Origin: Phyllosticta citribraziliensis
Taxonomy: Eukaryota
Assembly: GCF_038025025.1 (NCBI RefSeq)
Contig: NW_027117350.1
Location: 62,001 to 126,000 of the forward strand
Length of the DNA: 64,000 nt
Reading direction: 5' to 3'
The translations under genes were made by a program, and so were the position numbers. Shown in pieces: positions 4,495 to 42,371 of the stretch (its first letter is position 1; every line of letters starts with the position of its first letter). The notes under the pieces were generated by a model, which searched no databases, was not told where the DNA came from, and was given only the letters and a program-made list of their open reading frames with translations.

Positions 4495-4526
4495 CTATAG
4501 CACTAATAAGTACGCGCGCAACTAGT
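4495..4526 (+). mobile_element. Helitron-like 3' terminus (GC-rich palindrome followed by CTAG|T)
   Basis: 'gcactaataagtacgcgcgcaactag|t': CTAG at 4522-4525 is followed by T, and a CG-retaining palindrome lies just upstream. The neighbouring gypsy pol frame is cut exactly here. Confidence 0.4.
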
Positions 4527-7500
4527 TATTAATAACTATCTAATAAGCCCTAAGAAGGTTTTAAGCTTCTAAAGGGTATTTAGGAAAGTAAGGTCCTTAA
4601 TAGTATAGATCTTATCTTTATAGGTAATTACTCTATAGCTATAGATATACTAATCTAAGTATAAAACTAAAGGGTATCTAAGTAGTATCTTACTAGGTAA
4701 TAAAGAGATCTATCTATTATCTAGTACCTTTAGTATAGAGTCTAGGTATATAAGATATTTATTAAAAGTTTTAGAGTATATTAGTATATTATTAATATAT
4801 ATAAAAGTAAAATCCTAGTAGCTAATATAGTATAGGATATTATTAAATTAGTACTAGATATATAGTATACTATTATAGAATCCTATAAGAGCTACTACTA
4901 GGGTTTCCTAGCTATAGTAACTCTAGATTATTATATAGTACTAGTAGGCTTACTTAACTAACTATTAATAGAAGAAAGATTACCTATTAATAAGTAAGGT
5001 ATCTAAATATCCCTATAAATAGCTTACTAAGTCCTAGATTATTTTTAAAGTATACTTACTATAGTATATTAGGGTATTTAACCCCTAAATATCTATAACT
5101 CTATAACCCTTATACTTATACTAAACCTATAGGGGCCTATCTCCTAATCTAGGAAGCTAGTAGTACTTATTCTTCTAGATAATAAAAGCTAGCTAAGTAA
5201 ATTCTATTAGCTTATCTATCTATAATATTTTAGGTATCCTATCTATAGTAATCTAGTTATATAAGTCCTTAAAGGTCTTATTTAGTACCTACTTACCCTT
5301 ATAGGATATACTATATACTTAAGTTAGTAGGAGGTATCCTAGCTTATCTTATTAGTTATCTACTAGATTAATAGGTATCTAGTCTTCTTTAGGTATATTA
5401 ACTATAGTATATTAGTCTATAAAAAGTAGTAGATACTTCTCTAGGATCTTCTAAAAGGTATTAATATAATCTAGTAGACTATAGATATAAATACCATTAT
5501 CTAGGGTAGTTTCTAGCTCTAGTAGGATTCTATTATAGAATATACCTATTATAGAGTAGTTAGATACCTAGTAGTAGCTATTAATTTCTATAGCTACTAA
5601 GTATCTAAGCCTTACTTATTATAGGGTTATAAGTAGCTTATCTATATTATTATAAGTAAATAGCTAACTAAAATCTAAATTATATACTATATAATATAGG
5701 ATACTACCTTAAACTAAGAATAGGATCTAGCTAGTCTACTAATTAGGCTAAAATTTATAGAGATAGTTAGAGAGATCCTTACTAGCTATTATACTAATTA
5801 GTACTAAGGAGTATAGCTTAATAATTATATACTATATAGCCTTAATAACCCTATATACTAGGGTAGTATACTTCTATAGTACTACCTTAGTCTATAGATT
5901 ATAGTAGAAGGGCTAAGTTACTATACTTTATAAGCTATTAATTAGGACCCCTTAAGGTTAGATAATATTTATACTAATAATTAGTAGGATTAGTATATTA
6001 TTAATTACTCTTATATAGTATTATACTATCCCTATAGCTTATAAGCTATTAGGTAGTACCCCTAGTAAGTAGAGTAGTAAGAGGATATACTTATTAGATA
6101 CTATAGGTTTACCTACTATTCTATATATAGTACCTACTATTAGTAGGGTCTAGATCTTAATATTTAGTAGTTTATTATATAGGAAGCTTCTTACTACTAA
6201 GGATAAAGATACTCCTATATCTAGGTAAGCTATATTAAGGAATCCCTTAGATATAAGCTAGAAACTTATTTCTATAGATTAGTATATAGGGAAATAGAGA
6301 GGTACCTAGATATCTATTATATTTACTAAGGAACTAATTATCTATAGATCCTAAATATTTATAGTTAAAATAGTATTAAGTACTTTAGATATCTAGTTAA
6401 GCTAATAATTAGATTATTTAGTTTTATTACTCTTAGACCTATTATATACTCTAGTAGGATAGTCCCTTAAATATATAAATAGTTTATTATATAATATAAA
6501 GTATATTAGATAAAACTAGTATCTATATAGTAGGACTAGTTAAGTATTATCTAGGGTCTTATTACTAGTACTAGCTAATAGGCCTAATAGGGTAAGGGTA
6601 ATAAAGAGTATAAAGTCCTTATAATAGTAATAAGCTATATCTTCCTCTATAATATCTTTATCTACTAATACCTTATTACCTTTATCTAGAGTACTATCTA
6701 AAGTATCTCCTTCTTCTTTATTATTACTACTATCTAAGCTACTAGTATAGTAATTAGGCTATACCTTAGCTAGGCCCTTATCCTTCTAGTTCTAGTATTA
6801 GGATTTTAAATTAGTAGTATTTCTAGTATACTTAGGTAGAGTAGATAGGGCCTTTTTAATAGGATATATAATCTACTTCTTAGCTATAGTATTATTTATA
6901 TAACCCTAGCCCCTATAATAGAAGTTATTAGTATTATTATAGGGATTTTATAAGATTCCTTACTAATTAGTATTATATATAAAAGATTACTTACTTACTT
7001 AGGGATATACCTTATTATATAGCTTATACTATATATACTAGTATAATTTAATATCCTAGATAAAATCTTCTATAGTAGTATCTACTTATAGGTATAGGAT
7101 AAGTATATAATATTATACTTCTATCTTATTCTAGGCCTATATTAACTAGCTATATACCCTAGTAAGGCTAGATACCTTATTATAATAGATATAATCTAAT
7201 ATAAAATCTACTATTAGGGTATTATTATATATACTATATTTATTAAATTTTATTTTATCTAGCTACCTTATAGCTTTATAGACTAATAATCCCTATTACT
7301 CCTATAGTACTTATACCTAGTTATTAATACTATTACTATCTAGGAGTATATCCTAGTAGGCCTTTATTAATTATTAGATATACTATTTAGAGATATATCC
7401 TTTAAGGTATTACCCTAAGTTTTTATATATAACTTATACTAGAATATATTATAAGGATATATCTATAGCTTTAATAAATTATTTAATATTTTAGTAATAG

Positions 7501-8105
7501 GTCTATATTCCTTTAATTATAATATTACTAGGTTTAAATTTAGCTTCTAGGAGGTATAGGTTAAAGAAGCCTACCTTCTTAGGGCTAGACTTTAGTACTA
7601 GTAACTACTATTAATATAGGGGAAATAATTACTACTAATCTAGGTTAGAGGTAGTCTATAGACTAGTATTACCTAGGTATTTTATAGCCTTCCTTTTATA
7701 ATTTATATACTAGATTATAGCCCTTAGGCTCTCCTAGTTAGTTTAAGCTTCCTAGATAGTATCCTATTAGGCTTACTAGTATATTTCTAGGGTTTAGAAT
7801 AATTTACCTAATTATATATTAATTTTAGCTATACTAGTATTAATTATAGTAAGTCTTATTCCCTACTAGCCTAGTAACTTAGATTAGTCCTTTAACTATT
7901 ATATTAGGTTAGTAATAGCTATATCCTAAGTACTAAGATTAGCTTTAAGGTACTAGGCTTAGGCCCCTATAAATACTAGTAGGTCCTCTATATTACCTTA
8001 TTTACTATCTCTAGATCCCTTACTAGTTCCTCTACCCCTAGATATTATAACTCTCTAGTAGTATTAAGAACCTATATTTAATTAGCTTATAAGGTGGTAT
8101 TTAGG
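4526..8105 (-). mobile_element. Truncated Ty3/gypsy retrotransposon (gag-protease-RT), RIPped
   Basis: Minus-strand de-RIP motifs: gag 'EVGFFDP' (~7555-7585), protease 'ACLDTGAS' (~6207-6230), RT 'VALMGFCNS..YVQR' (~4860-4900), YIDD (4788-4799), 'LETFLGLVGW' (~4535-4565). It ends abruptly at 4526 with no RNase H or integrase in the window. Confidence 0.85.
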
Positions 8106-9499
8106 TACTCCTAGGGGTAGGAGTATAGGAAGTAGCTTATATTAGTTATATTATAGTAACTAGGAAGGTTTTAATAAAGGGAATTAAGTATTTAGGTAGT
8201 TAGTATTAAATTAAGTATCTAGGTACTTAGTATTATACTAGATAATTATATTAAGAGATCTACTATATATATCTAAGGAGAGGTTATTACTACTTATATT
8301 ATAATAGTTAGGAAAATAAAAGGCTCTATAGTAACTAGGTTAGTATAGGTTTAGATCTATAGAGTAGGATTTATAGCTTAATATATAAGAGTAGTAAAAA
8401 AGATTAGAAGGTATATAAGGAGAAGTTAAATATCTAAGGGATATATTAAAGGAGGAAGTATTAAATAGTTATTATTAGATATAGCTAGGTATTAAAAGAC
8501 TAGTAGATTCCTAGGTAGGTAATAGTAGGTATATTATACCTATATTAAGGCCTAGGATCTAGTATAATAACTACTATTATAGTTATTTAGTTACTATAGT
8601 ACCTAGTTATTATATACTATTTTTATAACTAGTAGATCTATATAGGCTAAACCTATAGAGGGTAATTATACTATACTTCTTAATTATACTCTAGGAAGAC
8701 TATTATACTAAGGGTACTTATAGTATTAAAGAGTAGATAGGAGTTAAAGTATATAGTATTATAATATATTAAGAAGTAGTAGGGGTTAAAGATAAGAGTA
8801 CTAGTATAGCTAGTATACTTATAATACTAGCTAGGAAATATATAGTATCTATAGATTAGCTTATTAGTACTAGTATCTAGCTTATAATTATCTAGGATTA
8901 GCTAGAAGAACTAAGTAGTAAGCTTATAATACTAGATAGTAGGATAGAGCCTTATAACTAATTCTTATAGGCTAGTATACTAATCCTAGTAACCTAAGTA
9001 GTATACTTATTAATAAACTCCTATATAGTATATAAGAGTGCCTATTAGCCTTTAGCTATAGAATTCTTAGTAATAGGGTATCTAAGAAGTACCCTACTAA
9101 CTAGATTTCTTATACTAGCCTAGATCTTAGGAGGATTAAACTATTATATAAAGATAAAGATTAACTAATAGGTTAAGGTAAGGAGTAGATCTTAGAGGGA
9201 CTAAGGGCTAGTATCTAAGAGAGTCTATAATTACTAAGTAAGTAGTTAAAGTCTTATAGGTAGTTCTTATTACTCTATAGTTATTAAGATAGACTAGGTT
9301 AGATTCTAGGTATAGGAGGATATTAATATACTATTAATATAGTAGAAGATATATTATATATTTAGATCTAAGTAGCTAGTATAGTAGTAGTAGAAGTAGT
9401 ATAAAAAGGGTTTTAACTTATAGAATAACTCTTTTTAGCTACTATATATAATAATCTAACTAGATATTTATAGTATTAATTTAGGTATAAGAGTTATCT

Positions 9500-10149
9500 T
9501 ATTTCTTAGACTATCTATATAGCTAAAGTACCTATTCCCTATAACTACTAAGCTTACTAAGCTTACCCTTAGTATCTAATAGCTTTACTAGATCCCTATA
9601 GGATCTACTACTATATCTTATACTAGATAGGTAGCTTTACCCCCTATAAGTTACTAACTATATAGTTAAGGTTACTTATATCCTAGATATAGTTAGTATA
9701 GCAGCCCTATAAGAAACTAGGTAGGTAATAATAATTAATAAATATATAAGTATTAGTATTATTATAATACTTAGTATAGCTAATAGGGTTATTAATACTA
9801 GTATACTAGATAAGAAAAGTATTATATAAGCTAGTATAAGTCTCTACTAATATATAGTTAAAATTTTAGGCTAAAACTATAATATATAAATATAGTAGAC
9901 TATCTCCTAGAGCTAATATATATCTAGTATACTCTTATACTTTATAGCTATCTAAGTAAGCCTATACTAGTTAGTTAAGGTATTCTTATATTAGTAAAGA
10001 AAACTTACCTATATAATACTCTTAATATTCTCTTAAGGTATGTTAAGTACCTATTTAAAGTCCTACTTAATAGGCTCCTCCTTAGAACTAATAGGTAATA
10101 TAGTAATATAAATCTTACTATTATTACTATTATATAAAGTAATAGGCAT
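9500..10149 (-). pseudogene. RIPped intron-containing host-like gene fragment
   Basis: Surviving ATG at 10149 opens ~47 codons up to a GTAAGT donor (10008), followed by a CTAAC branch point and TAG acceptor at ~9963-9967. Product not recognised. Confidence 0.3.
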
Positions 10150-11119
10150 TAAGTACTTAGCTATAGGGACCTAATAAGCTATAGGATTATAATAATAGTA
10201 TATATAAATAGGTTCCTCTTCTTCCTTATCTAATACTATCTATATAATAGTAAAGTAATAATAATATAGTATAATAATAGGTAAAGCTAACTACTTAATA
10301 ATAGGCTAAGCTAATAATAACAATAAACCTTATATAATAACCAATAATACTAATTATATAGGACCTAATACTATAGGATAGTACTAGTAAAGTAATAGTC
10401 CTAGCTAAATAAGCCTAGCCTAGCCTAACTATATAGTTATATAAGTAACCCTAGTATTTTATCCCTCTATAACTATATCAGTTAGTAAGATAGGGTAATA
10501 AAGTAGTAAAACCTAGATATATAAAGCTACCTAGTAATAAATTAGTCCTATTAGAACTAGATAAGTTAGTAATAATCTTTAAGTAAGATAGGCTCTCTTA
10601 CTATAGTACTACTCTATATAATAGTCCTAGTAGATACTACTAGTAGGAATAGCTCTCTAAGTAAGTAGTAACTAAGATAGATTATAGATAATACTATATA
10701 ATAGAATAGTAGTATATAAGGATTTCTAACTACTAGTATAAGTAGTAGCTATAGTAATAGGAGATAAAAGACTTAAAGAGATATTAGGGTTAGTTTCTAT
10801 CTTATATAGCTCTTTTAAGCCTTTATATAACTATTAGTTTACTAGATTATAGCTAATTTAGCTAGGATAATAATATACTTTAGTAAGGAGCTTAGAATAT
10901 AGCTAAGGTAGATAGTAACCTTTTATAGGTTATATAGTAATAGAAGATAGTAATAGAGAAAGATAGTATAGTAATAAAGCTAGACTAATAATTATACTTT
11001 ATAACTATATAGAATACCTAAATTACTAAATACTACTACTATATATTATAAGTCTATACCTATATAAGTGCCTATAGCTACTAATTCTTATAATTTTAGC
11101 TTCTCTTTAGGGGGGGTAA

Positions 11120-11476
11120 TATTATAATAGGTATTATATACTTATATAAGTACTAATACTAGTATAGATAAACCTAGTATTATATAGTTATAAGCTACTA
11201 GCTACTATAACCTTAGGCTAATACTAGCCACTATAGCCTTAGACTAATACATTATAATAATCTATTAATACCTCACCTTTAAGATTAACCTAATAATAAT
11301 TACTAACCTTTATATAAAGGTTTAGAGGTATATAGGTATAAAGGAAAGGTTAGGAAGTAAGTATATTTTATATTTTATTCTTTTAACTTATTATATTTAA
11401 TTAAGATATATATATATTCTCTAGTAGTTCACCTTTAGCCCTAACCTAAAAAATAAGAATCTTATAAGTTATAATA
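11120..11476 (+). mobile_element. LTR (3' LTR preceded by polypurine tract), gypsy family B
   Basis: Termini tattataa...gttataata are RIPped TGTTGTAA...GTTACAACA. It is preceded by 'tagggggggtaa' (PPT-like) and homologous in inverted orientation to 12693-13093. It has an internal 26-bp tandem duplication at 11198-11249. Confidence 0.8.
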
Positions 11477-12692
11477 AATATAGTATATAAGTATATATAG
11501 CTATTTCTTAGTATCCTTATACTTATATAGACTCTATAGAAGATTATCTAGGAATTTAAAGATATCCTTATCTAAAGTAATCTTATTAGCTTTTATATAA
11601 GAAGTAAGGAAAGGAGTTAAGTATTATAAGACCTCTCTACTAATATAGGAAATAATATATCCTATAATATTCTTCTTAGTTTCTTCTAGTATACCTTTAG
11701 TAAAATAGTTATAGTTTTATTTAATTTTATTTTAAATAAGGAGAGTCTAGTATTTATATAAGGGATCTTCTCTATTAGTAAGAAGAGGAGAATTAGGAAT
11801 CTTTCTATTTTAATATTTCTTATTAGAGAAAGAAGTAGATATCTTAGCTATACTTTCCCTTATATAGATAGTTAGAGGGCTAAGAGACTTTTATATTCTT
11901 CTAGTAGAAGGATCTTAGGATATAGTAATAAATTTTAGGCCTTAGTCTTTAATTTTTAAGGGCCTTATAACTAAATCCCTTAAAGATTCCTTATAGGTAT
12001 TAGTATAGTTTAAGAGTATTTACTTAAGAGCCTAATTTTATCTTTATATATAATTTAATTACTACTATACTTAAAGCTTATTTAAGGGAGCTACCTTAAT
12101 CTTAAATTATTTAATATCTTAATATAGTACCTTTATAAAGGCTTCTATAATTAGAGCCTTTATTATATAGGTAGGTCCTAGATTTTAAGTATACTCTTTT
12201 ACTTCTACTAATCTAACTATGTAGAACTTATAGAGGAAAATAGGAGGAGGTCCTTATTTTTTCTTAATTAAAGATTATCTAGGGTTATATAAGTCTTTAG
12301 TTCCTTTATATAAATCTTATTAGATAGATTAACTAGTATTAGTACCCTTAGTAATACTAGATATATTAGCTTTATTCTTAGCTATATATCTTTAATAGTT
12401 TTTTACTTAGAATATTCCTTAAGTAGGTATAGATAGGATACCTCCTAAATATTTATATACTACCCTATAGTCTTAACTAAAAACTTCTATAGTTAATATA
12501 TAGTTAATACTTCTTAGCTATTAGATAATACTAATATATCTAATAAGGATAACTTAGGTTTACTAGAGAAAAGTAATAAGTAGTCTTATATAAGATTATA
12601 GCTATATATAATATTACTTAGGTTAAGTATTATAATACCTTTATAGGTAATAAAATAGGATAGAGCTAATACTTAGAATAATTTTTTATATC
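11477..12692 (-). mobile_element. Truncated gypsy gag following the 12693-13093 LTR
   Basis: Minus-strand de-RIP 'KIPDxPLLTDGEDP.YE.W...Q.K...N.DHF' (~11705-11803) is the typical fungal gypsy Gag motif. It is cut off at the 11476 LTR end. Confidence 0.7.
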
Positions 12693-13093
12693 TATTATAA
12701 CTTATAAGTTTCTTATTTTATAGGTTAGGGCTAAAGGTAACTACTAGAGAATATATATATATATATCTTAATTAAATATAAAAAATTAAATATAATAAAT
12801 TAAATATAATAAATTAAATATAATAAATTAAATATAAAAAATTAAAAGAATAAAATATAAGAGATATTTACTTTCTATCTATTTCCTAACCTTTCCTTTA
12901 TATATATCTACCTCTAGTTCTTTATATAAGGGTTAGTAGTTAATATTAGGTTAATCTTAAAGGTAAGATATTAATAGGTTATTATAATATATTAGCCTAA
13001 GGTTATAGTAGCTAGTAGCTTATAATTATATAATACTAGGTTTATCTATACTAGTATTAGTACTTATAATAGTATATAATACCTATTATAATA
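12693..13093 (-). mobile_element. LTR (5' LTR), gypsy family B
   Basis: The reverse complement aligns end-to-end with 11120-11476. It contains about 5 tandem copies of a 14-15-mer (aattaaatataa[t/a]a) at ~12770-12845. Confidence 0.8.
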
Positions 13094-14250
13094 GAGGGCA
13101 CCTATTAGGAACACCTAGACCTTAATAATTAAAGAAGGAGTTCTAATACTACTTATATTTATACTAATACCTCTAGTCTCTCTAGTAGTAAAGGTATAGG
13201 TATAGGCTTAGTTATACTACCTAATAACCTTATTAATAGTAGGTCTAAGTCCTTAAATATAGAGTACTCTAACCTAGTATATAATAGGGAATTAGAGGGT
13301 ATTACTAAGGTATTTAAATATACTAGTAGAAATATAAAAAATAGATATCTATACTATATATATATATATATATAGATAACTAGGTAAGAGGCTTAAAGAG
13401 GTAAATAATATATTCAGCTATCTTAAATCTAAACTAGAGAAGAAAAGAAGAGATAGAGGAAAGAGAAGAGAGAGAACTAAGTACTATCTTACTTAATAGC
13501 TAGGCTTAGTAAGCCTAGCTTATAAGATTATATAATAGGTTTACTAGGTTAGATTCTAGTACCTAGGTCCTTTAGGTTATAGCCTAATACTAGGCTACTA
13601 TATATAGGATAATTAATATTTCTAATAACCTAGGATAGTCCTTGTAATTAAAAGTCCTAGATATAGCTAAACTAGCTATATCTAGAGGTACTTCTATAGT
13701 ACTAGAATAGGTACTAAGCTATATAGATATATATAGAAATAAATTAGCTAATTCCTTAGCTAAGGAAATAACTAATAAGGATCCTAAACCCTACCCTAAA
13801 GCTCTAGTACTTATAAGCCTAGATATAAAGGATACTATTATATAGGACTAGTAGACTATTATAAATAAGGTAAAAGCTAAATCTAATAATATCTCCTCCT
13901 ATTATAGTACTTATATAACTAGACCTAGCTATAAGCTTAAGGTACCTATAGAAATACTAAGAATTATAGCCTTTACTTTTTATTAGCTAAAAATAGGATA
14001 TAGATACTTTAAAGCCTACTTATTATATATTAAATAGTCTCCTATTAGTATATATAGATATAGTAGCTCTAAGGAAACTCCTATATACCTCCTACTATCT
14101 TATAGGGAGTATAGAGATTAAAGAAAATTACTTAGTATTATAAGCTAATAGGTTACCTAATTAGTAGGCTAGTTCTAAGTAACTATTTATCTAATACTAA
14201 GGCATATAAGTATAGGAGATAAAGCTAAGTAAGGAGGGTATATAAATAAG
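13094..14250 (+). mobile_element. LINE (Tad/I-like non-LTR) ORF2 3' fragment: RNase H plus CCHC knuckle, RIPped
   Basis: De-RIP motifs: 'YIYTDAS..GIGIG' (~13150-13210), 'VYNGELEGI' (~13275-13302), 'LEWVPSH.DI.GNELADSLAKE' (~13700-13767), 'QLK.GHGYFKAYL...C.CG...ETP.HLLL.C' (~13985-14105). Confidence 0.85.
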
Positions 14251-14785
14251 GTAAAAGTTAAATTAGTAGTAGGCCTACTTAGGAGTATTAATTATAAGAA
14301 AATAAAGATAGCTATCTATAGTATCTATATAATAAAGTCCTTTTATATTCTATTACCTAACTTACCTTAGGAATTATAATAGAAGGAAGGAAGGTACTAT
14401 AAGAGAATAAGACCTTATCTTAACCCTATATTATATAGTAGTTTACTAGCTTATTAATAGTAATATATTTCTTAAAACTAACTACTTATTTAAGTCCCTA
14501 TAATAGGTATAGGAGGTTCTATTCTTATTTCTATTATTATATTAGTATTATATATATAGGTACTAGGGTTAAATTATCTAAGTAGCTATAGCTCTTAGAG
14601 AGTTAGGTAACTTTAGTATATATAGCTTATAGCTATAGCTAGTAGTTATAGTATAGGTATACCTAGTACTTAATACTAAGTAGTATTTAATATAATTATA
14701 GGTTTTTAGCTAACCTATAATACTTAGAGAAGATATCCCCTCTCTAAGTATTAAAAACCTATCTAAAAACTTAGAAACTATAAAG

Positions 14786-14950
14786 TATAACTCATCCTAT
14801 AGATAGGCACATAAGCTAAATATATCTTAATTAGACTAACTACCCTAGCCAGGGCTAGGGGCTAACTATACAGGCCAGGGCCCCTACCTATACTAAGGCC
14901 ACTACCCTAAATATACTAGGCACTAAGCAAAGATATACAGATATATAATA
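14786..14950 (-). repeat. 3' LTR of the 12-kb element (165 bp)
   Basis: Ungapped match to 26657-26821, with differences being C/T or G/A transitions. Ends tataac...tataata are RIPped TG...CA. Confidence 0.93.
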
Positions 14951-14981
14951 AAATAGTAGCTATATACTAGTAATATCCTTA

Positions 14982-17597
14982 TCATAAAGTCCAGTTATCC
15001 TCCTATATATAAAACTCTAGTTTCCCTATTAAGCCTAAGTAGTCTAATACTTTATAGGGCTAATCATTAGGTGTCTAATATAGAATATTAGCAATACTAA
15101 TATTAGGGGCCATAAGACTTACCTATCTAGCAGGGTAATTAGTAGTATAGTTAATATTAGTTTCATACTATTATTAATTATTAAGAAGCTTAGTAAGTAG
15201 GTTATTCTAAGCCTTAAAATTAATATTATTATTAGTAGGTAGAATATAGATATACTAAATATTAATATTATAGTCCTCCTAGAAAGTCTAGGGTAGTAGT
15301 CTATATATAACTATAAAAGCCACCCATACTACCATACTATTACTAATACTAATATTAAAACCCTTAATAAAAGCCTTAGACTTAGTAAGGTAGTAGTAAT
15401 AGACTAAGGGTATATATCTTAGGCATATAAGCTAGTCATCCTTATACTAAAGGGGGTTATAATCTAGGAGTAGGGTAATATAGTAACCTATACTAAGTTT
15501 AAACTATAATATAGAGATAATTATCTTATTCTAAGAAGCTTAGGTAAGGAGACTACCTAGAATTAGATAAGTAACTATAGTAGGGTCTATAATACTTAAT
15601 AGTATAGGGATATTATACTCTATCTATAGGGTATAGGTCCTAATACCTATAGTTTTAGGGGTTCTTATTATTAGGTAATTATAGATCCTAGTTAGTATAG
15701 CTTTATTATTATTAAACCTAGTAGTAAAGTAGTTATTAGGTACCTTAGATATAACTATACCCTAACTTATATAGGTAGGGCTACTACTAGCTATATAGTA
15801 GGCTTCTTCTTATATAAGGAATATAGTAGCTTATATATTAGCTTTATTATTAGCCTACTTATTCTACTAGTATATCTCTTATAATATCTCTTTAAGGATA
15901 TAATTAAGCTAGCTACTATAGGTACCTAAAATAGCTATAGGGTAGTTAGGTTATACTTCTAATATACCCTTATTATATATCTTAAGGAAATTAGGGTCCC
16001 TTATAATATTACTAGTATCTTCTAAGGTAATATTAGATAAAGTATATAAGTAGTAGATAAAGTCCTTATCTTTTATAGGGACTACTAGGGCCTACTAGTT
16101 CTTTCTATTATCTACCTAAGGGGTATAGTACTTATTACTAATAATAAACTCTCTATCCTTTTCTACTAGGTACTTTATAAACTTTTAGAGCTATAGTATT
16201 AGGAACTAGTAAAAATTAGTAGGATCTAATATTAGTAGGTAGAATTATAATTCTATAGGGAAAATTAAGTATATATAATCTAATATAAATTTAGGGACCT
16301 TAAAGGTATAGTCTAGGATTAGAAATAAACTATAGTACTTATATAAGTTAACTATAATAGTATACTATAAGATAGTAGAATTAATATCTAGGTCCCCTTC
16401 CTTCTTATAGCCTAGGAACTATTAATAACCCTAGTCTCTATAGAATAAGTATCTACCTAGCTTAATAAGATAGCTAAAATAGACCTATCCCTACTTATTA
16501 ATAATTAGTAAACTAAAACCTATAGGGTAATATAGTCTATTTATACTACCTTCTATAAGGAAATAGGGATATAGGCTCTTAGTATTATAATCCTTAAGAT
16601 TATAACTAGTATAGTAAAGCTAAATAACTATTAGGAGTATAATAATAAGTTAACTAGATAAATAGACTCCTTTTAGTAGTAGGGTATTATTATAGATAAT
16701 ATAGTAATAGGCCCCTATATACTTAAAAAGTAGCTATTTATAGGTATTTTAGAGGAAGTAACCCTTTCTATAATTAGAGGGTTTAAAGGTATTAATATTA
16801 TATAGCTTTAGCTTCTATAACTCCTTTAGATATATCTAGTTACTAGCTATAATTAATCTTACCTTACCTTTACTAGGGTTATTATTATTATCTTTATAGA
16901 GTATTAAGGTATTATTATCTATAGTACTATATTTATTAATATTATAGGTAGCTCTATCCTTACCCTTATAGTAGGTTATAACTAGGGCCTTATTATTACT
17001 AGATATTAGGATAAACCCTGCTACTTTATTAGTATCTAGTATAATAGGGGCCTTTTTAATTAGCTTAAGAAGCTATTTATACTCTAAAGGAGTAGTTATA
17101 GCTATTAGTAAAGTACTATTTAGTTAGTTTCTATTATAGTCTAGGGGCTAGCTATTATTCTTCTTTATATTAGGGGTCTTACCTTTACTACTTTATCCTA
17201 TAACTATAACCTCCTCCTTATTACTTTCCTTAGTATTATTACTTTAAGTATATTAGGGTTACTTAGTAATGGTAGGTAAGCTACTTATAGGTATACCCTA
17301 CTTAGTTATTATTAGTATTTCTAATAGGAGTAGGAGTAAAGATATACTTCTAGGTATCTCTAGGGGTATAACTATAGCCTTTAGTATAGTACCCTTAGGT
17401 TTAGTTAATATAGCTAGGGGTGAGCCTATAGTACTACCTTTAGTACCTTTCTTTAGCTTTATAGTATAATAAGGAACTATATTAAGTAAGTTAGGCTTAT
17501 TAGCCTTAGTTAAGTAGGTAAAGTATTAGGTACTAATAGCTTTAGTAGCTAAAGTAGTTACTAATATACTAGGGGTACCTTTCTTCTTTAGGGGTAT
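14982..17597 (-). pseudogene. Extra ORF3 of the 12-kb element (~871 aa, unknown function), RIPped
   Basis: One continuous frame runs from 'ata ccc cta aag aag aaa ggt' (de-RIP MPPKKKG) at 17597 to TGA at 14982-14984. Internal stops are only TAA/TAG, and in-frame C-ending and AAG/GAG codons occur throughout. Confidence 0.7.
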
Positions 17598-18149
17598 AGT
17601 ATAAAGGATAGTATATAGTATAAGTTAAAGGGTATACTAGTTATAAGGGTAGGTTAATAGTATAGTAAAGATTAGCTATATATTAAAATAGTAGATCCTA
17701 GGTTAGTAGGTACTAAGCCCTAAATAGTCTTAGATTAAAATAACTAACTTAGGAAAATCTATTTAGCCCTCTATATTACTTATATATCCTCTATACCCCT
17801 CTAAATAAAGGAATAAAATAAAGAAACTCCCTTATAACTCTATTATTCTTTATTATCTATTATTCCTTCTATTAAATAAAGGAAACTATTACTCTCCCTA
17901 TTATATAGAGGGGTAATTACTATATAAACTATAATATAAAATAATAATAGGAAATAAGGAAGAATAGGAATACTAATATTAACTATACTATATTTATAAA
18001 TACTATAGGCTGAGGGCCCTTATATAGGGGGGATTATTATTAAAGGGCTAGAGTACCTGGCCTAGGAATAGGTTTAGTAGCTACCCTATAGCTTAGTAGT
18101 ATCCTTACTATTAGCTAAGATATAATTATTAGTAGGGTATATAACTATA

Positions 18150-21100
18150 GTATATGCTAGTAGTTTTAGTATATATAGTAGTTATCTTCTTATAGAGTAT
18201 AGGGTGGTACTAGTCTTAAGTCTTTTATTATACTCTTTAATAAGGTCTATAGTATTTTTAAGGTTATTAATATTATACTAGACTTAATACTAAGGGCTAT
18301 AGCCCCTCTATTTAATTAAGTACTAGAGCTATTTTATAAAGGGGTTATATTAGTAGTCTAGTAAGGTTTTAATTTTATACTTAGGGGCTAGGTTATTAAT
18401 ATTTACTATAGGTATAGGGTCTAGAGGTACTTAGTAACTATAAGGGTTATTAGTAGGATTATACTTAAGTTAGCTAATTAATATAATAGGGTAGATTTTT
18501 ATTAGCTCTAAGAGGTTAAGCTTATATATTAAGGGGCCTATAACTCTCTTTACTTAGTAAGACCCTATTCTTAGTAGTTATAGCTTTTTTAGTAGGTTAC
18601 TATAAACCTTATACCTAAAATATAGGTATAGAAGTACCTTATCTCTAATCTTAAATTAGACTAGCTTATAGTAGGAGTTATAGTACTCCTTCTAGGTAAT
18701 AGTAGTAAAAGCTAGGGCTTCCTAGACTTCTACCTAGTACTAGGTATATAGTACCTTAGTATTAATATCCCTTATACTCTTAAGATTACTAAATATAGTA
18801 GTCTATAGGTTAAAGCTATATAGAATCTTATATAGTATATACCTAGTAGATATATTATAGGATATATTTATTATCCCTTATATATAGGGAAGTATATCTA
18901 TCTATATATAATTAGAATTAGTAAATATAAAATAATATATTATATATTCTACTATCTAATTAGTATATTTAGACTATCTATTAGCCTATAGGTAATATAC
19001 TATAGTACTATAGAATTATACCTTTAGTATTATAAAAACTTATATAATAAATTTAGATAGTTATTTTATATCCTAGTCTAAGATTAATATATTAGATAGG
19101 CCCTAGCTATAACTATATAGGTCCTTAAACTAAACTAAGGCCTATTACCTAGTAGTCTATATCTCTAGCCCTAGGGTAAGTAAGATTACTTTAGAGAACT
19201 TATATATAGTAGTAAGGAGACTATTAAAACTACTATCTATAATAGCTAGGAGCTTTATAATAAAATTAGTATATAATATAAAGAAGGGGATCTTAATTAT
19301 AGTAATTAGTATTAAGCTATTATAAGGGTAGTACTATTTAGTAGTTATATACTTATAGTTAGGGTAATTTTCTATATATAAGTATAGCTACTTATATAAC
19401 TAGTATATATAAAATAAGGCTTAGATAAAGTCTATAGCTTAATTAGGGTCTTAGTAGCTATAGGTATTATATATAAACTAGAAGATTTCCTTCTTATAGG
19501 CTAAAGGGATATATAGGTATTCCCTATTCTTCTTAGTATAGTTAATAAAGTAGATAAGCCTATAGTATAGGATAAATTATAGTCTTAGGATAGGATTATC
19601 TTTACTAGGGTATATCTCTATACTCTATAGCTATCCCCTATTACTTACTTCTTCTTAAGGGGCCTCTACTAGTAAGTTACTTCCTTTAGGTATATTTACC
19701 CTAGTTAAGGCTAGTATATCTACCTTAGTTAATATAGGTATATCTACCCTAGTTCTATCTTAGGTTACCTTAATAGGCTAGCTTTTAAACTACCTCTCTA
19801 GGGCTATAGCTTATTTAAGTACTTATAATATATAAGCCTACTATAGATCTACTATATAGCCTTCCTATACTTTATTCTTAAAAGTATTAATTATCTCTAC
19901 TAATATAATATAGAAGTAGCTTATAGCCCTAGTAGGATTAGGGTTATATATTACTATAAACTATATAGGATCTATATTATCTAGGAATTCTACCTTATCT
20001 ATAATATCCCTATTATTATAGCTAGCTTTTAAAGATAACTAGCTTAAGGTATCTAGTATAATATAATTCTATCTAGGGTAGTACTTTATAGTTAAAGGAA
20101 ATTATAAGAGATACTATAATACCTATATTAGGTATAGATTTAATTACTTATTAGATTAAGAAGTAGTAAAAGTCTTCTACTATACTAGTACTATTACTAT
20201 AGTATAGTCTATAAAAAGTATTATATAAGCTACTAATTATACTAGAGTATATAGTTTTTTAACTACTTAGTATACCCTAGTTATCTTGAGTTTAGTAATC
20301 TAGTACTATATTTCTATATTAGATAGCTATTATAAGAGGAATATAATTAGCTTAATTAATTAATATAGGAAGTCCTTTATCTATTTTAGCTATAGGGGTA
20401 GTTTCTCCTTATTAGTATTAGCTACTATAACCTTTAGTTACTAGTCTTCTATTTCTAGCTTAGGGTCTCTAGTAATATAGTATACTATAACTCTAAATCC
20501 TAACTCCTTTAAAGTATCTATATTAATATATAGTAGTTATAATAGATTATAGTAAAACCTTTAATATATCTTATAAAGTATATTATATATTATATTAAAT
20601 ACTACTATTAGTAATAGCTCTAGTAGTATTAGCTTAGCTACTATAAAGTATCTCCTTACTTACTTATCTTTTAGGGCTTTCTATAGATATAATATCTTAA
20701 TTACCTCTAGGGGCTTAGCTAGTTAGGTATAGTAGGGGTAATTATCTTATAGCTATCCTATTAGACTAATAAATATTTTAAGTTCCTATAGTATATAAGG
20801 GAAAACTATATCCTTAAAGGCCTAGATCTTAGTATTAGAGGTAGTAATTCCTAGCCCTAATACCTATTAGCCTAGGAGTATAATTAATAGGTATCCTAGA
20901 TAGGTTTTCTTAATAGATAGGCTTATATTAACCTAGTCTAATATGGTAAAGATAGCCTCTAAGTACTAGATATACTTATCTAGTAATTATAAGAAGATAA
21001 TAATATTATTAATATAGGGGTATATAAAGGCCTAGTAATTCTAGAGTAATATATTATATTATTACTATATATATTAAATGCTGTTATAGTAGCCTATAAG

Positions 21101-24100
21101 AGTAATATTACTTTATTCTACTCTATAATAGGTAAGTATTACTAGCTTATAGTAGTCCTCTATATATACTCTCTATTAGTAGAAGAATACTATTATATTA
21201 ACTACTAAAATAAAGAGGTACCCTTAGATTTCTAAAATAATATTAGATATTAGTAGTAGAGGGTAACTATCCTTCTCTATAATAGTATTTAGTATATAAA
21301 TATTAATAATAATATAATCCTTCTATTTAAACTCCCTATTCTTACTAGGGACCTATCTCTATACTATAAAGACTAGGAACCCTAGACTTATATTACCTTA
21401 TGCCTATTTAGCCTTACCTTACTTATATATAGGGTTAAGGGTATTATCTTAGAATTCTTTATCTTATTATAAGGCTATATATAGTTATATTTATTAGAAT
21501 TTATCTCTCTAATCTAGGACTAGTAGAATATATATCTACTCCTCTTTAGGAACCTTAATAAACCCCTTTTAATTAGTAAATAGGTCCTTAAATTAGTCTA
21601 TAAAGGCTTAGTAATATTCCCTAGTCTTAGAAGGGCTAAAGATTAGGATACTATTATTTAGCCTTCCTTTTTCTATTATTAGGAGTAATAGGTTTAGGGC
21701 TACTAGGCTATAGTCTCTATTAATAAGCTAGTAGCTTATATTAAACTCTACTACTATTAGACTACCTAATTATAAGTTCTTTAAGATAGTTAGGGTCTAG
21801 TTAGAGTTATTTTATATAATAATCTATATTATATTAGTATTTACTATAATAGAATATAGGAATCCTCCTTTTTATAGAAAGGGAATAGGTCTTATACTAT
21901 AATTAGGGTAGAACTTATAGTATTAGATTAGTAATATTAGTCTAGGTATATAGATAGGTACTTTTATAGTACTATAGGGTAGTATTATAGTATACTTACT
22001 TACTATAATATATTAATATACTAGTATTATATATATCTTTATTATTACTAAGATTCTAAAGCCTCCCTTACTAAGGTAGGGCTAAATTACTTAATCCTTT
22101 CTAAGGTCTATAATTACTACTTTAGGATATAAGAGGTTATTCCCTATTAATAGTAGGACTAATATATCTTAATTAATAATATATATATAGTAAGGGATAT
22201 AGGCCATAGCCTTACTATCCTTTATATACCCTAGTAGGTAGAGGGGTAGGAGTATATAGTCTATATATAATATTATAGTACTAATACTATTAATTTATAT
22301 AGGCTTTAGAAGTATAAGGATCTTTATATCTAGTAGTTACTCCTATAAGAAGCCTCTAGTAATTAATAAGGATAATACCCTAGTATTAAGATATATAATA
22401 TCTATAAGTCCTAATATATAGAGCTAAAAGCTATACTTAAGGGACTAGTAATAAGGGAATCCTAATAAGCTATTATCTACTAGTAACCCTAGTAGTACTT
22501 ATTTAGATATTAAGATAGGGGGATCCTTACTAGATAAAGCCTTTTTATTAGTTCCCTTAATTCTAGGATCTATTATACTTACTATTATAAATAAACTACC
22601 TATTAATAGGGTACTACCTTTAGCTTTACTCCTCTAATCCTAGTATAGCATAGTATATATAGCTAAGCTAAATAGAAAGAGTAGGCTCTATACTAATATA
22701 TAGATTACTAGAATAAGTTATAGTTAAAAAGGGGCTATATATTATCCTATTATATAGCCCTAAGTCCTTTTAGGGACTCTTACTTATTATTAATAGTAGC
22801 TATAAATATATCCTTACCCTATATATTATAGGTAGCTCTTAAAGATCTATATTAGTAACCTATACCCTATAAATAGTAGTATAACTATTATTTTAACTAG
22901 AATCTCTCCTAATAACTATTATATACTATTAGGTATATAGGGGCTAGTCTAGGACCTATATCTAGCTAGTCTAGGGATTAGTTAAAAGCTACTAAATAAT
23001 AGTATTAGCTATAGTTATAGACTAATATATTAGGAGGCTAGTTAATAGATTCTATTTTCTTTTCTCCTATAATCTTAGAGGTAGGGGAACCTAGCTCTTC
23101 TAGGGTAGATTTCTCCTCCTTACTAGACTCCTCTCTAGTTTCCTTACCTTATATAAGGTACTATCTATAAGTAGTTTATCTCTTACTAATACCCCTTATA
23201 TTATTAACCTTAAATAGTTATAACTAGGATCCTAAACCTAACTCTCTTTTTAATCCTACTCCTATATTTACTAGAGTAGGTAATATAAGTTATTTTAGGT
23301 AGGTAACCTACTTATTATTACTTAGTCCCTTAGTACTTATATTATCCTAAGGGGCTATATATCCTCTATTAGTCCTTTTATAGTTTACCTAGCTATAGGG
23401 GTAACTTTAATTAGTTATCTATCTCTAGCCTTACTAGGGGAAGGTTCCCTTACCTACTTTATAGTATTATACTAGGTACTCCTAAATTTAGTAATAGCTC
23501 TTAATTATTTTAATAAAGGACTATATAGTTATTTAGGGTATAGGCTCCTCTAGCTACTACTAGTAGAAAGGATCTATTTTAGTAAAGGTATTAATAAGCT
23601 AATTATAGATAGTCTAGAAGCTAGCTATATATCCTAAATAGATATAAGTAATTATAAAGTCCCTAGTACCCTTATTATATACCTCCTTAAGACTAAAACT
23701 AATAGTATTTAAAATATTAATTACTTTATACCAGGTTATACCAAAATCCTCCTAAAGTAAGGTAGCCTAGTATTTAATACTAGCCCTAGTATATACATAG
23801 GTACAGTCCTCCTCTATAATTTATAAAGTAAACTATATATTAGTAGTTCCTTTAAAATACTTCTATAGATTAAGTTATACTATCCTAGTACTAAATATTA
23901 TATAAGCTATCTAAGTACTATTAATAAATTATTCTATAGTATAGTAAACTACCTTCTTATATTTTATAGTACTACTACCCTAGCTAACCTTATCTTTACC
24001 TAGATTAGGGTTAAAGTAGCTAATATTATTAGGGTAGAAGTATAGGAAAGTATAAGAGTAGTTATAATTATTATCTATATACTAAGTAATTTATTAGTCT

Positions 24101-26328
24101 ACTACTAGTAGTAGAGACTACTTATATATTATACTATTAGGAAAATAGAACTAGAAGTATAATAATAGTTATAATTATATAAGGTTTAATAGTCCTCTAT
24201 AATTATAGGTTTTAGGAGGAGGAAAACTAGACTAGGTATAGTATTCCTAGTAATACTATACCTTTATATCTAGGTAAAAGTAACCTATATTATCTTAGGG
24301 GTAGTAGGTATTATTTATAGTATTACTAATAGATTTAAGACTAGCTAGGTACTTACTTAATAAGCTATAAAGGGTATTAATACTATTATTTATACTCTTA
24401 AAGCTTTCTATTTATACCTATTACTAGTTAAGGATAAGCCCCTAGAGTCTAGTAATCTAGCTTATTAAAGTAGTATACCCTACTAGGCCTTATAGGATCT
24501 CCTCTATCTTATTTATAGTATTATAGTACTATCTTTCCTTACCCTAAGTATCTATTCTTTAGCTAGTAGGGCCTAGCCTAGCTATAAACCTCTAAATATT
24601 AAGGCTACTAATATTAAAGCCTATAGTAGGCATACCTTATATTAGTATAGATAATATAAAGGTTCCTATAGTTTAAGCTAGTAGAGGTAGGAAGATTCCT
24701 ACTATAGAGATTATTAATATAGTAGCTCTAGTAGAAAAGGGGGCCTATACCTACTTTATACTAGTACTATAGGTATTAAAAGTATAGATATATAATTTTA
24801 GTAGGGGTACTATTATTCTAGATCTCTAAGTATTTAAGAAATTTAAATAGTCCCTTTACTAGGTCTTATTATCTTTATCCCCTTAATAATTATTAAGACT
24901 ATTATTATAAGGGTTATTATACTACTTAGTATTATAATTAATATATAGGTTCTCCTTATTATAGGGTAATATCTCCTCTATATTCTTATTACTATTATAC
25001 TAGGGGTTTAGTTTAACTATCTCTATTAAGGAGGTATAATATCCTTTACCTTTATTAATAGGGACCTATAAAGCTATAATTAAACTAGTATATAAATATA
25101 TACTCTTCTATCTATAAGTACTAACTAAGGTTTAGCTAACTTGACTTAAGGGCTAGGCTCTTAATTAAAAGTGTAGGAGTAGTTTTATAAAACTAGGAGA
25201 ACTATAATTATGTCCTTATAATATTTAGGGTAGAGTAGTCTTAGTTAAATTATTAGGTTAAGCTAGAATATTAAGTTATAAGGTATACTCTATATAAGGT
25301 TTATAGGTAGGAGAGTTAAGTATAAGAGTTAAGGGGTATCCTTAAAGAGTGGTGATAGGAGTATAGGCTAATAAGGATAGTAGATTAGCTAAGTATATAG
25401 TTAGGGTAGCTTAACTAATTAGGTAGGTATTACCTAAGGGATAATTATTTAACTACTTTAATATCTAGCCTAGGGTTATTAGATTAGTTATTAAAGGTCT
25501 TATAGGTAGTAACTTTTAAGGTATTACTAGGGTACTTCCCCTTTTTACTTTAGGGATACCTATTATTCCTAGGGCCTTATTTATTTATTATAGGCCTGAG
25601 TTAGGGGTTATTAGGTAGTCTAGGAGTATTTATATAGAGGAACTAAAGCTTCTAGGTTTTAGTATAGTAGTACTTACTAGGTTATCTATAATAGCTAGGG
25701 ACTATTATTTATATAGGCTAAACTAGTTATATAAGGATCCTTATCTAGACTAGGGTACTTATAAATCTAGTAATCCTAAGACTTATATAGGTATAGGAGT
25801 CTAATTTAGCTAGCTCTTTATAGCTTAGCTAAATAGTAAATATACTGAGCCTTAACTAAAATAGGAGCTATACCTGGCTATTAAAGGGGCTGCTAGGGTT
25901 TAGAGGTGTAGACTGGTTCTTAGTATTATTAGGGTGTTTATACCTAGGGTGACTGGGGTACTTATACTAACTTGTATATAGGATACTAGTAATAGCTTAT
26001 ATAGCTTATTATATACCTTGCTTACCTACTTAATAGTGTGAATAACTATACCTTTCTTATAATTACTACTGTTATCCTATTAGAATAGGTAATCTAGGTG
26101 GTACTATTTAGTGATATTTTATTATATTAATAGGCCCTAAGCTATTAGGGGGTTAAAGAGCTTAGTAATCTATTTTATTTATTATAGGATCTTAGGAGTG
26201 AGTAGCTTATCCTTATAGGTCTAGTTCTTCCTATAGTCTATAAAGGCTTTAAGCTCCTAGGCTAGTAGTATATCCTAGTTACTAATTATATTATCCTTAT
26301 AAGGATGGTTAGGTATAGTAGGATTTAT
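18150..26328 (-). pseudogene. gag (with long N-terminal extension) and pol of the 12-kb element, RIPped
   Basis: De-RIP motifs: gag 'DDIGYF.PD' (~24268-24294), PR 'VCLDTGAS' (~22372-22400), RT 'MGYCNS..YVQR' (~21062-21100) and YIDD (21005-21016), integrase C-term 'G[P/S]Y.V.RVVG...KIHPVVSISQLE' (~18465-18570), chromodomain 'YLIKWRGYGP' (~18290-18325). Pol is in a different frame from gag. The pol end coordinate is approximate. Confidence 0.88.
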
Positions 26329-26656
26329 AGTAGTAAGGTAGAATCCTAGTAGATATAGGGGTAGTTTATAGTTAATACCCTAGGTAAAAGATTAGAAGGG
26401 TATTTTATAGTTTAGGGTAATATATTATCCTAATCCTATAGTAGGCTACTAGTCTTTTAGTTAGTTAGGGGAGGGTCTTAGTAAGGGGCTAGCCTTATAT
26501 ATCTATATTACTATTATAAACTAGGGCCTTTAGGTAGGGTAGTAGAAGTAACTTTATAGTACTAGTATACTATAATATTCTAGGTAGGTACTTTTATATA
26601 TATTCCTTATACTATAGTATTAATTAGTAGGGTTATAGTACTTTTAGCTACTACTT

Positions 26657-26821
26657 TATAACTTATCCTATAGATAGGTATATAAGCTAAATATATCTTA
26701 ATTAGACTAACTACCCTAGCTAGGGCTAGGGGCTAACTATATAGGCTGGGGCCCCTACCTATGCTAGGGCTACTGCCCTAAATACACTAGGTACCAAGTA
26801 AAGATGTATAGATGTATAATA
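26657..26821 (-). repeat. 5' LTR of the 12-kb element (165 bp)
   Basis: Matches 14786-14950. On the minus strand it is followed by aag+tagtagcta (PBS-like TGGTAGCTG after de-RIP). Confidence 0.93.
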
Positions 26822-27689
26822 TAAAGGCTACCTTAGCCTTTATTAAAAAGACTAATATAGCTACTAAATAGTAGTATATTAAAAGAGAACCTACTATATA
26901 GTAGGGTTAAGGAGTTAAGGAGTTATAGATATATATATATATATATATATATATCTCTATATATCTTACTCTCCTACCTGTTAAACCTAACCTTTTTCTT
27001 TATAAACCTTTACTCCTTTAGTTTTTACTTATTTCTACTTATATTACTAGTTTAGTAATTTTCCTATAAGGGCTAGGCCTAAAATGTCTAATTATAACTA
27101 CTTAAAAAATCCCTAAGAAAGACTATAATATATATATATACACTCCTAATATAGTTATAACCTAATAGGATATATAATATATAAGCTATATAGAACTACT
27201 AGAATAGCTATCCTTATCTCTTATAGTCTTAGACTTAACAGGGATATCAAACTAAATAATTAAATAAATCACTTCTCCTTCTAGGCTAACTAGATTGGAC
27301 TAGTATACACGTGAGCGATAGGCGCCGAACGCCGAACACCATGAAATGCCAGCGGCGCGTCGCGCGCAACAACTGTCTTATATATTGTTCAATGAATATA
27401 TATAATATAGATGTTATAAGATACAATATCTACTTTAGAGCATCTTAAGAAGGGAGCTCTTAGCATTGAAAGAGTTCATTCCATACATCATCATAGAAGA
27501 CCGATAACCGGATCGGTGTTGACCGACTTCAAGTCTTCTTCAAGACCAATTTTTCTTTTCTCACCAAAGGACAAAGCGAAGAAGGAATCATATCATGGCA
27601 AGCCCCAAGCCGTAGACACCGAGTTTGCTCCTCTAATTCATGATAACGAACGCAGGAAAGACGGTTCAAAGCACGCTGAAATCCTCCGT

Positions 27690-41698: not shown

Positions 41699-41790
41699 GC
41701 AGCGGTAGCTCAGTGGTAGAGTGTAGGATTGCAGTTTCTGTGAGACAGCATCCCATCCCGAGGTCCCCGGTTCGATCCCGGGTCGCTGCT
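41699..41790 (+). tRNA. tRNA-Cys(GCA) with ~20-nt intron (41735-41754)
   Basis: Acceptor stem GCAGCGG/TCGCTGC, A-box TAGCTCAGTGG, anticodon GCA at 41731-41733, T-arm CCCGG-TTCGATC-CCGGG, U73 discriminator, and a T-run terminator at ~41795. Confidence 0.88.
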
Positions 41791-42371
41791 TCTCTTTTTG
41801 CGGTCCCTTTTTGGGATCCAGTACCCCTGGATGTGGTCTATGAGAAGCACTTTCGGTTGCTGAGGGCGTTGGATGCCATTTTGTTTTTGAAAATGACAGC
41901 AATGTTGTCGAAATGCCGTGTTCAAGAGCGCAGCTTGACCTGCGAAGAAGGCGAATGCGGGTTGAAGGGATCAGTGGACACAAAGGAGGGCACATCGTCC
42001 GTTCCCCGCCCAAGTCACCTTGAAATTATGTGAATTGCAGGGGTTGCCAGTCAGGATGCACGCATTACAGCAAGGGAACCCAAGATTTCGTTCGCGAACC
42101 AAAGATGTCATGAAGAAAGCCGAAACAACGGATCAAGTCGACCTACGAGCAAGACTACACAGCTGATTCCCCAATCGAGACAGTCACGCTAGAACGATAT
42201 GCAGCAAGGCCATGAGCGACAGGTTTAGGCGCGAAAGGGTTCATTGATACAGCTATAATGCAAGTCCGTGTCGTCGTCCATTACCGATTATAGTCTCTAT
42301 TGAAAGCTCGAGTCTATGCATGTGCCTGGATGCCCCTGATCCCCAAAACTCCTTGCAACGAAACGTCTGAT

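Follow-up and report, generated by a model that had tools for sequence, protein, structure and literature searches.

A RIP-degraded 12-kb chromovirus with a long gag and the imprint of a third coding frame in Phyllosticta citribraziliensis

Introduction

Large retrotransposons with more than gag and pol have been described in fungi. The passages of Novikova et al. (2010, BMC Genomics 11:231; PMC2864245) that deal with element structure give fungal Gypsy elements lengths of 4.4 to >13 kb, recognise 20 clades of fungal chromoviruses with CCHC fingers in some gags and, in the legend of Figure 3, mark an 'additional ORF with unknown function' (ORF, open reading frame). RLG_Rolly of Leptosphaeria maculans is a Ty3/Gypsy element of 11,875 bp with 235-bp long terminal repeats (LTRs), according to the sections on it in Rouxel et al. 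(2011, PMC3105345) and Grandaubert et al. (2014, PMC4210507). Here, we describe an element of 12,036 bp on the minus strand (positions 14786-26821) of a 64,000-nucleotide stretch of the Phyllosticta citribraziliensis genome (contig NW_027117350.1, positions 62,001 to 126,000; this whole stretch is called the window). The element is a dead relic without present function, degraded by repeat-induced point mutation (RIP). We consider it moderately probable that it is a copy of a three-part, long-gag chromovirus family in a RIP-competent ascomycete and that the third region, which lies between pol and the 3' LTR, is intrinsic to that family.

The element shares with the fungal chromoviruses of PMC2864245, as far as these are set out in the passages cited, the LTRs, the order of protease, reverse transcriptase (RT), RNase H, integrase and chromodomain, and a fungal host; it differs from them in the gag, since CCHC occurs in some of theirs whereas the clade described here has C-x2-C-x12-H. 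RLG_Rolly resembles it in size, is RIP-degraded and fills the AT-rich blocks of a Dothideomycete plant pathogen (PMC3105345, PMC4210507). The env-like ORF of the plant Athila type, as mentioned in PMC2864245, is likewise a third ORF on the same strand between pol and the 3' LTR. In contrast, the Athila-type lineages belong to another kingdom and clade, and nothing in the present element suggests an envelope function.

An earlier, sequence-only reading of the window had held that fungal chromoviruses typically encode only gag and pol, and had put this element forward as the best candidate for a new system. The literature does not agree with either statement: even in the parts cited, additional ORFs in fungal Gypsy elements (PMC2864245), sizes above 13 kb (PMC2864245) and the 11,875-bp RLG_Rolly (PMC3105345) are already in print. 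The element adds one more example to a known kind and is not a new system, and its lineage may already be present among the per-family entries of Novikova et al. (Additional file 1). A literature search found no dedicated study of a third ORF or of a C2H2 gag in fungal Gypsy elements and no specific description of Phyllosticta transposons; the term 'third ORF' does not occur in the available part of the text of Muszewska et al. (2011, PMC3248453).

Overall structure of the element

The element lies between two matched LTRs and two copies of a target-site duplication (TSD), and its coding relics are all on the minus strand, as follows.

14781..14785, no strand assigned: left copy of the TSD, TAAAG, the same as the right copy
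14786..14950, minus strand: 3' LTR (element sense), 165 bp, from the repeat comparison
15331..17821, minus strand: remains of a third coding region (ORF3) of about 830 codons in frame m2, from stop density and codon usage
18203..21661, minus strand: pol relic, frame m0, with RT (about 20869-21325), RNase H and integrase in the same order as in relatives
18221..18640, minus strand: relic of the integrase C-terminal SH3 domain and chromodomain, from BLASTP to the protein P0001
21725..22366, minus strand: protease-side block of the N-terminal region shared by the clade, in frame m0, from a hidden Markov model (HMM) and weak collinear tblastn matches
22900..25650, minus strand: remains of the long gag in frame m1, spanning about 900 codons, from an N-terminal HMM and stop density
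26657..26821, minus strand: 5' LTR (element sense), 165 bp, from the repeat comparison
26822..26826, no strand assigned: right copy of the TSD, TAAAG, the same as the left copy

Before RIP, the minus strand would have read, in order, a 165-bp LTR, the primer site TGGTAGCT, a leader of ~1 kb, gag (about 900 codons), pol (about 1,500 codons), a third ORF (about 830 codons) and the second LTR, and the pol would have been made up of protease, RT, RNase H, integrase, SH3 and chromodomain. The element would have inserted into an older repeat with a 5-bp target duplication, and RIP (C to T, G to A) would then have acted until every frame was closed. The large same-strand ORF after pol would be a trait of the nearest sub-lineage, which is represented by two metagenomic loci of about 12 kb (L003 and L005).

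A TpA/ApT ratio above 0.89 and a (CpA+TpG)/(ApC+GpT) ratio below 1.03 indicate RIP; the element has values of 1.84 and 0.06, compared with 0.52 and 1.29 in the gene-rich part of the window, and both indices, together with LTR mismatches that are transitions only, mark it as a RIP-mutated repeat. No stop-to-stop ORF of at least 80 aa was found inside the element. The sequence-only reading had accounted for the extra length by continuous minus-strand frames on both sides of gag-pol; extra length is indeed present on both sides of pol and on the same strand, but the frames are only stop-poor and none is open.

Pol region and chromodomain

For protein searches, the minus strand was translated with X at every stop. 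A phmmer search with the pol relic (query 21574-17975) against 1.84 billion representatives returned 4239 matches at E <= 1e-3, of which P0001 was the top match (2.3e-105), and the mapping by tblastn was collinear. The order protease, RT, RNase H and integrase is evident from this collinearity with polyproteins whose Pfam order is RVT_1, RT_RNaseH, Integrase_H2C2 and rve. Positions 18221-18640 aligned with residues 1465-1602 of P0001 (BLASTP E = 5e-17), where the Pfam domains SH3_Tf2-1 (1463-1524) and Chromo (1552-1602) are located; the chromodomain of the window was thus recognised through homology to P0001 and not by a direct Pfam match. RVT_1, RT_RNaseH, Integrase_H2C2, SH3_Tf2-1 and Chromo were present in 8/8 relatives scanned with Pfam. 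Taken together, the pol matches and the SH3/Chromo alignment identify the element as a chromovirus-type Ty3/gypsy retrotransposon, which agrees with the chromovirus-like identity proposed earlier.

The depth of the decay affects the sensitivity of such searches. A Pfam scan of the six X-read frames and of pieces of the window gave only a weak SH3_Tf2-1 match and missed the RT; since Pfam misses even the RIP-mutated RT, its blanks on the extra segments say little. As a control among PDB sequences, the RIP-mutated pol matched the Ty3 Gag-Pol 7q5b at 5.6e-5. Stops in frame m0 of pol (22366-18200) numbered 126 in 1389 codons, compared with 12.9% in the other five frames (p = 4e-6). A RIP-aware score, computed as log-odds over the possible pre-RIP codons, raised the match of pol to that of L005 from 912 to 1425, with shuffles at 48 +/- 7; such codon scoring offers a practical means of annotating RIP fossils.

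Long gag

The relatives of the element carry 560-1440 residues ahead of the RT, and the N-terminal regions of 22 of them are mutually homologous over about 900 residues. An HMM built from these 22 regions matched the window twice, with a conserved block (block A) at 24036-23503 in frame m1 (7.7e-10) and a second part at 22366-21725 in frame m0 (domain E = 1.9e-15). In addition, the C-terminal part of the L005 gag gave a RIP-aware score of 144 against a null of 47 +/- 5, and frame m1 had 87 stops in 917 codons at 25650-22900, where stops made up 13.0% of the codons of the five remaining frames (p = 6e-4). The N-terminal homology extends across the clade, and the long gag is therefore a clade trait rather than an insertion, so that the extended Gag of the sequence-only reading was confirmed. 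Clade members were found in genomes of Leotiomycetes and Eurotiomycetes (Chlorociboria, Ascosphaera) and in many metagenome contigs, and the long gag is common to this whole clade, which is spread across Pezizomycotina.

Pfam gave only weak zf-C2H2 matches to the relatives' gag (E 0.014-0.23), and its matches included neither a gag nor a CCHC-knuckle family. As a separate observation, the alignment of the relatives' gags has invariant C130, C133, F137, S139 and H146 (P0001 residues 130-146) in a C-x2-C-x12-H pattern.

Third frame between pol and the 3' LTR

No part of the element has a stronger coding imprint than the third frame, which in this respect exceeds pol. In frame m2 at 17821-15331, 49 of the 830 codons were stops, compared with 13.9% in the other five frames (binomial p = 1.4e-13), and all 49 were TAA or TAG. 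A codon-usage score trained solely on pol was positive in m2 from about 17370 to 15210, that is, over ~2 kb; when cross-validated on the pol halves, this score gave +41 and +62 versus -90 to -121. Based on the stop density and the codon-usage score, the region 17821-15331 was protein-coding. Of a large ORF on the same strand after pol, only a coding imprint is thus preserved, and the extra ORF that had been reported from the letters stands in part: the imprint in m2 is strong, but no open frame is left. We infer, rather than show, that this frame served the element as a working accessory gene, and the same holds for any role it may have had.

The third frame found no partner in any search. A word-based search of 5.8 billion proteins yielded 8000 candidates that were scored, none of which passed; phmmer against PDB sequences gave 0 matches at E <= 10; Pfam, which also misses the RIP-mutated RT, gave no match; and none was found by tblastn against 150 relatives. 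When the other 14.8 kb of RIP-mutated DNA in the window were compared by codon pairs, the third frame had no counterpart there (59 versus a null of 62), whereas pol (600) and gag (195) revealed a second related element. The parts of the element could not be told apart by their purine content, on which RIP has no effect. We also compared 481 ORFs of at least 150 aa from 80 loci of the clade by RIP-aware scoring and discarded the top scores of 60-69, which came from Q-rich gag tails on stop-rich wrong frames.

Comparison with relatives and other copies

A metagenome scan identified these 80 loci. Typical members are 6.7-7.7 kb long, with 87-650 nt from pol to the 3' LTR. A same-strand, non-gag ORF of at least 384 aa follows pol in 12/26 loci that have at least 1.5 kb of sequence downstream, and these 12 represent 10 distinct elements. 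One domain of ~100 aa is common to five of the ORF3-bearing elements; their ORF3s otherwise differ. The L003 element (703-11881) is intact, with a gag of 880 aa, one stop, a pol of 1528 aa and an ORF3 that is cut by the contig end after at least 1194 aa and contains coiled-coil-like and low-complexity parts. The L005 element (528-12918) is complete: the insertion measures 12,391 bp, its LTRs (122 bp) are 99% identical and its TSD is GCGAG; it has a gag of 861 aa, 4.7 kb after pol (with an ORF3 of 432 + 896 + 171 aa) and 5 in-frame stops, and L008 is identical to it over the shared part. For the L003 ORF3, a word-based protein search found no homologue and the ESM Atlas no usable match. AlphaFold gave no usable model of the domain that the five relatives have in common in ORF3, with a predicted local distance difference test score (pLDDT) of 30.

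Among 49 loci, the RIP-aware pol score of the window was highest for L005/L008 (1346) and L003 (1303), and the next locus reached 1210. In a maximum-likelihood (ML) tree of 44 rows (after removal of 6 near-duplicates from 50), the neighbour of the window was the pair of L003 and L005, and the top identity, to L003, was 31%. A support of 89 applies to the split of the L003/L005 pair from the other 41 loci, and one of 95 to the smallest starred set, of 7 rows. The window element is likely, though not firmly, nearest to L003 and L005 as judged from these alignments.

The features of the L003/L005 type, a long-gag lineage with three ORFs, were found in the window for the pol, the gag and the same-strand ORF, whereas the shared ORF3 domain was not. 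The window element and these two relatives have in common LTRs of about 120-165 bp, a 5-bp TSD, the TGGTAGCT primer site, a gag of about 860-880 aa with block A, a large ORF on the same strand after pol and an overall size of about 12 kb. They differ in that L003 and L005 have a longer ORF3 without detectable similarity to the third frame of the window, and in that they are intact or nearly so, whereas the window copy is RIP-dead.

Evidence from other copies came from short contigs of three small public runs of the same organism, of which 24/67 pieces are listed; nothing is concluded from depth or from stretches that no contig covers. The contigs on the element differ from it by 3-15%, mostly by transitions. 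Among the 24 listed pieces, 11 fall within 14951-18200 and several in the 5' part, and two records cross position 15143, the outer end of an inverted repeat described below (record 2, 14922-15348, 49 differences; record 17, 15074-15231, 24 differences). Because these diverged contigs cover both the segment and the junction at 15143, the extra segment is present in other, differently mutated copies. One-off insertions, the outcome that would have undone the sequence-only reading, are therefore not what the extra parts represent, as evident from the diverged contigs and from the three-part layout of the nearest relatives.

The window copy is a fossil that merely enlarges an AT-rich RIP block beside genes. 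The main interest lies in the intact relatives: intact chromoviruses of fungi, 12 kb long, occur in public metagenomes; their gag of about 880 aa has a C2H2-like finger in place of the usual CCHC, and they carry an orphan ORF3 of >1,100 aa. An L003-type element would be the place to study what a third gene brings to a fungal retrotransposon.

Alternative explanations of the extra segment

Several observations weigh against a three-part family with an intrinsic third region. The branch of the window is very long (1.98), and with supports of 89 and 95 this makes its placement with L003 and L005 unsure; moreover, with no named reference sequence in the comparison, the lineage was not assigned to any of the named fungal clades (Maggy, Pyret and others). 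An HMM of the ~100-aa shared ORF3 domain (L003 residues 437-538) did not match the third frame, RIP-aware pairwise comparison with 13 ORF3 pieces of relatives gave a best score of 57 against a null of 46 +/- 4 with none passing, and a RIP-aware profile of the shared domain scored 43 against 44 +/- 5; RIP and fast evolution of ORF3 may be hiding a true match to this domain. The gag is in frame m1 and the pol in m0, whereas in L003 and L005 an in-frame stop separates them. No polypurine tract was found beside the 3' LTR, where the bases directly ahead read GCTACTATTT. This is not attributable to RIP, since changes from purines to pyrimidines are outside its reach; the relatives have merely a T-run and then a short G-rich stretch before the 3' LTR, so that the feature is weak clade-wide. 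Finally, the third frame is enclosed by a perfect inverted repeat of 19 nt, and no inverted repeat bracketing ORF3 was found in five relatives. The arms are as follows.

15143..15161, no strand assigned: left arm of the inverted repeat, 19 nt, perfect
17972..17990, no strand assigned: right arm of the inverted repeat, 19 nt, perfect

A more tentative reading goes further. The ascomycete chromovirus lineage would keep a gene slot between pol and the 3' LTR, the content of which changes fast or is swapped, and the frame in the window would be a new occupant, perhaps from a DNA transposon with terminal inverted repeats (TIRs), with ORF3 acting as an accessory. If so, ORF3 might, for example, counter host silencing or aid particle traffic, and the elements would be a fungal counterpart of the three-gene Ty3/gypsy lineages of plants and insects.

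Somewhat doubtful, in our view, is the proposal that the third frame derives from the transposase of a TIR transposon of 2,848 bp (15143-17990), which would have landed in the 3' untranslated region of a master copy and spread with the retrotransposon; the family itself would in that case be a ~9.2-kb gag-pol chromovirus with a passenger. The 19-nt arm length was reached in only 1/200 dinucleotide shuffles, and 12/13 other 3.5-kb windows of the RIP block gave inverted repeats of only 14-17 nt. hAT elements have CAG-type ends, and the arms start with TAG, the RIP product of CAG. The coding imprint lies inside the arms with margins of 170-190 nt, the third frame has no similarity to the ORF3s of relatives, and its stop density is 5.9%, compared with 9.1% in pol. 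With the segment removed, moreover, the gap between pol and LTR would be about 400 nt, which is within the 87-650 nt of the clade.

Other points argue against this proposal. The sequences beside the arms (gtaattag / tatttata) contain no target duplication of 2, 3, 8 or 9 bp even when transitions are allowed, and the mismatches of the flanks are transversions, which RIP does not make. Stop-free runs of 59 and 64 codons in m0 cross both arms, one of them (18022-17845) through the right arm. The two diverged contigs that span the left arm continue into the 3' end of the retroelement, and the segment is thus not private to this copy. The nearest relatives also have an ORF at the same place. Transposase homology of the third frame was found neither in Pfam nor in the word-based search, nor among PDB sequences at E <= 10, in which the RIP-mutated pol does find Ty3; the sensitivity of these searches is low and the control a weak one.

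We regard it as unlikely that the 3.2 kb after pol is a captured fragment, whether of a host gene that template switching brought in or of a non-LTR or Copia element, rather than a gene carried by the lineage. The strong coding imprint combined with orphan status in every search would fit such an origin, as would the ORF3s of relatives, which are almost wholly different save for the one ~100-aa domain; given this dissimilarity, turnover or repeated capture at the site is plausible. On the other hand, the strand and the place match those of ORF3 in L003 and L005, no poly-A, second LTR or repeat marks of another retroelement are present, and the 481 ORFs from the 80 loci gave only low-complexity artefacts. 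Very improbable is a chance origin of the stop-poor frame from RIP-skewed composition, with the extra DNA as a non-coding leader and trailer: RIP yields very low complexity, in which frames may differ by chance, and p1 and p2 in this region also have fewer stops (88/830) than m1 or p0, but 49/830 stops against the pooled 13.9% (p = 1.4e-13) and a pol-trained, cross-validated codon score that is positive over about 2 kb of m2 argue against it.

Borders, primer-binding site and untranslated regions

The two LTRs are identical at 147/165 positions, and 18/18 mismatches are transitions. Their termini, TA..TA, are the RIP product of TG..CA, the ends typical of chromovirus LTRs; in the relatives, the LTRs start with TGT(C/T)A and end with ACA, and the TSDs are 5 bp. 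In public run X3, two contigs connect 14778 with 26820 and omit 12,041 nt, equal to the element together with a single TSD copy; in the listed flank-joining piece, 97 nt of the right flank matched without difference. These contigs come either from an allele or strain that lacks the element or from a different copy of the invaded repeat, and since they omit exactly the element, they support its borders independently. The 165-bp LTRs, the perfect TSD and the length of 12,036 bp noted before were thus reproduced by the repeat comparison, and the borders also by the X3 contigs.

The LTR pair was the only direct repeat of at least 40 nt in the element, with which a blastn self-comparison concurred, and after the sequence was collapsed to purines and pyrimidines, which removes RIP differences, the sole 28-mer diagonal was again the LTR pair. 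It follows that no nested LTR element is present, as the sequence-only reading had also stated. Scans for Rfam families and tRNAs gave no match within the element.

The remaining features of the two ends are as follows.

14951..15142, minus strand: 3' untranslated stretch without a clean polypurine tract
25651..26644, minus strand: 5' leader, about 1 kb, without a clear frame (37-44 stops per 335 codons in all six frames)
26645..26653, minus strand: primer-binding site, which reads TAGTAGCTA, 3 nt past the 5' LTR, a RIP form of TGGTAGCT

On the minus strand, the 5' LTR is directly followed by AAG-TAGTAGCTA. Among the relatives with recognisable LTRs, TGGTAGC was found 0-4 nt past the LTR in 12/19; L005 has TGGTAGCT, and two more relatives have transition variants, TGATAGC in L050 and TAGTAGCT in the RIP-affected L053. 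As RIP turns TGG into TAG, the primer site of the window is the clade's ordinary tRNA-type site. The priming signals, which had been called atypical, are therefore the TGGTAGC site of the clade after RIP; TGGTAGC(T) presumably matches the 3' end of the initiator tRNA-Met. A 9-nt inverted match beside both LTRs (TAGTAGCTA, TAGCTACTA) was rejected as a candidate signal; it is best explained as the primer site plus a common RIP word, each of which occurs 9-10 times in 27 kb. Within the leader, positions 26191-26371 of the minus strand (m1) resembled pol in codon usage, with a score of 16 bits per 60 codons.

Surroundings of the element

The element is part of an extended RIP block: positions 1-27 kb of the window have a GC content of about 27% and an extreme RIP signature, and a sharp boundary at ~27000-27500 separates this AT-rich block from gene-rich DNA with a GC content of 50-60%. 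A second RIP-dead chromovirus of the same clade is present on the minus strand at 4532-7583, with gag block A at ~7583-7224, a protease-side block at ~6299-5907 and the RT at 5522-4545; its homology ends at ~4532, and RNase H and integrase seem to be missing. Two further repeat pairs were observed in the block. The inverted pair 11120-11482 / 12687-13093 (~360 bp, 80-87% identity, with a perfect inverted stretch of 42 nt inside) may represent the ends of a TIR transposon or two opposed LTRs. The direct pair 2663-2884 / 13389-13607 (~220 bp, 70% identity, 10.7 kb apart) could be the LTRs of another large nested element. On the GC-rich side of the boundary, a tRNA-Cys (GCA) gene of 95 nt, probably intron-containing, lies at 41698-41792, and a gene on the minus strand at 42375-43274 encodes a GH17 glucanase that is 94% identical to a Phyllosticta citriasiana protein.

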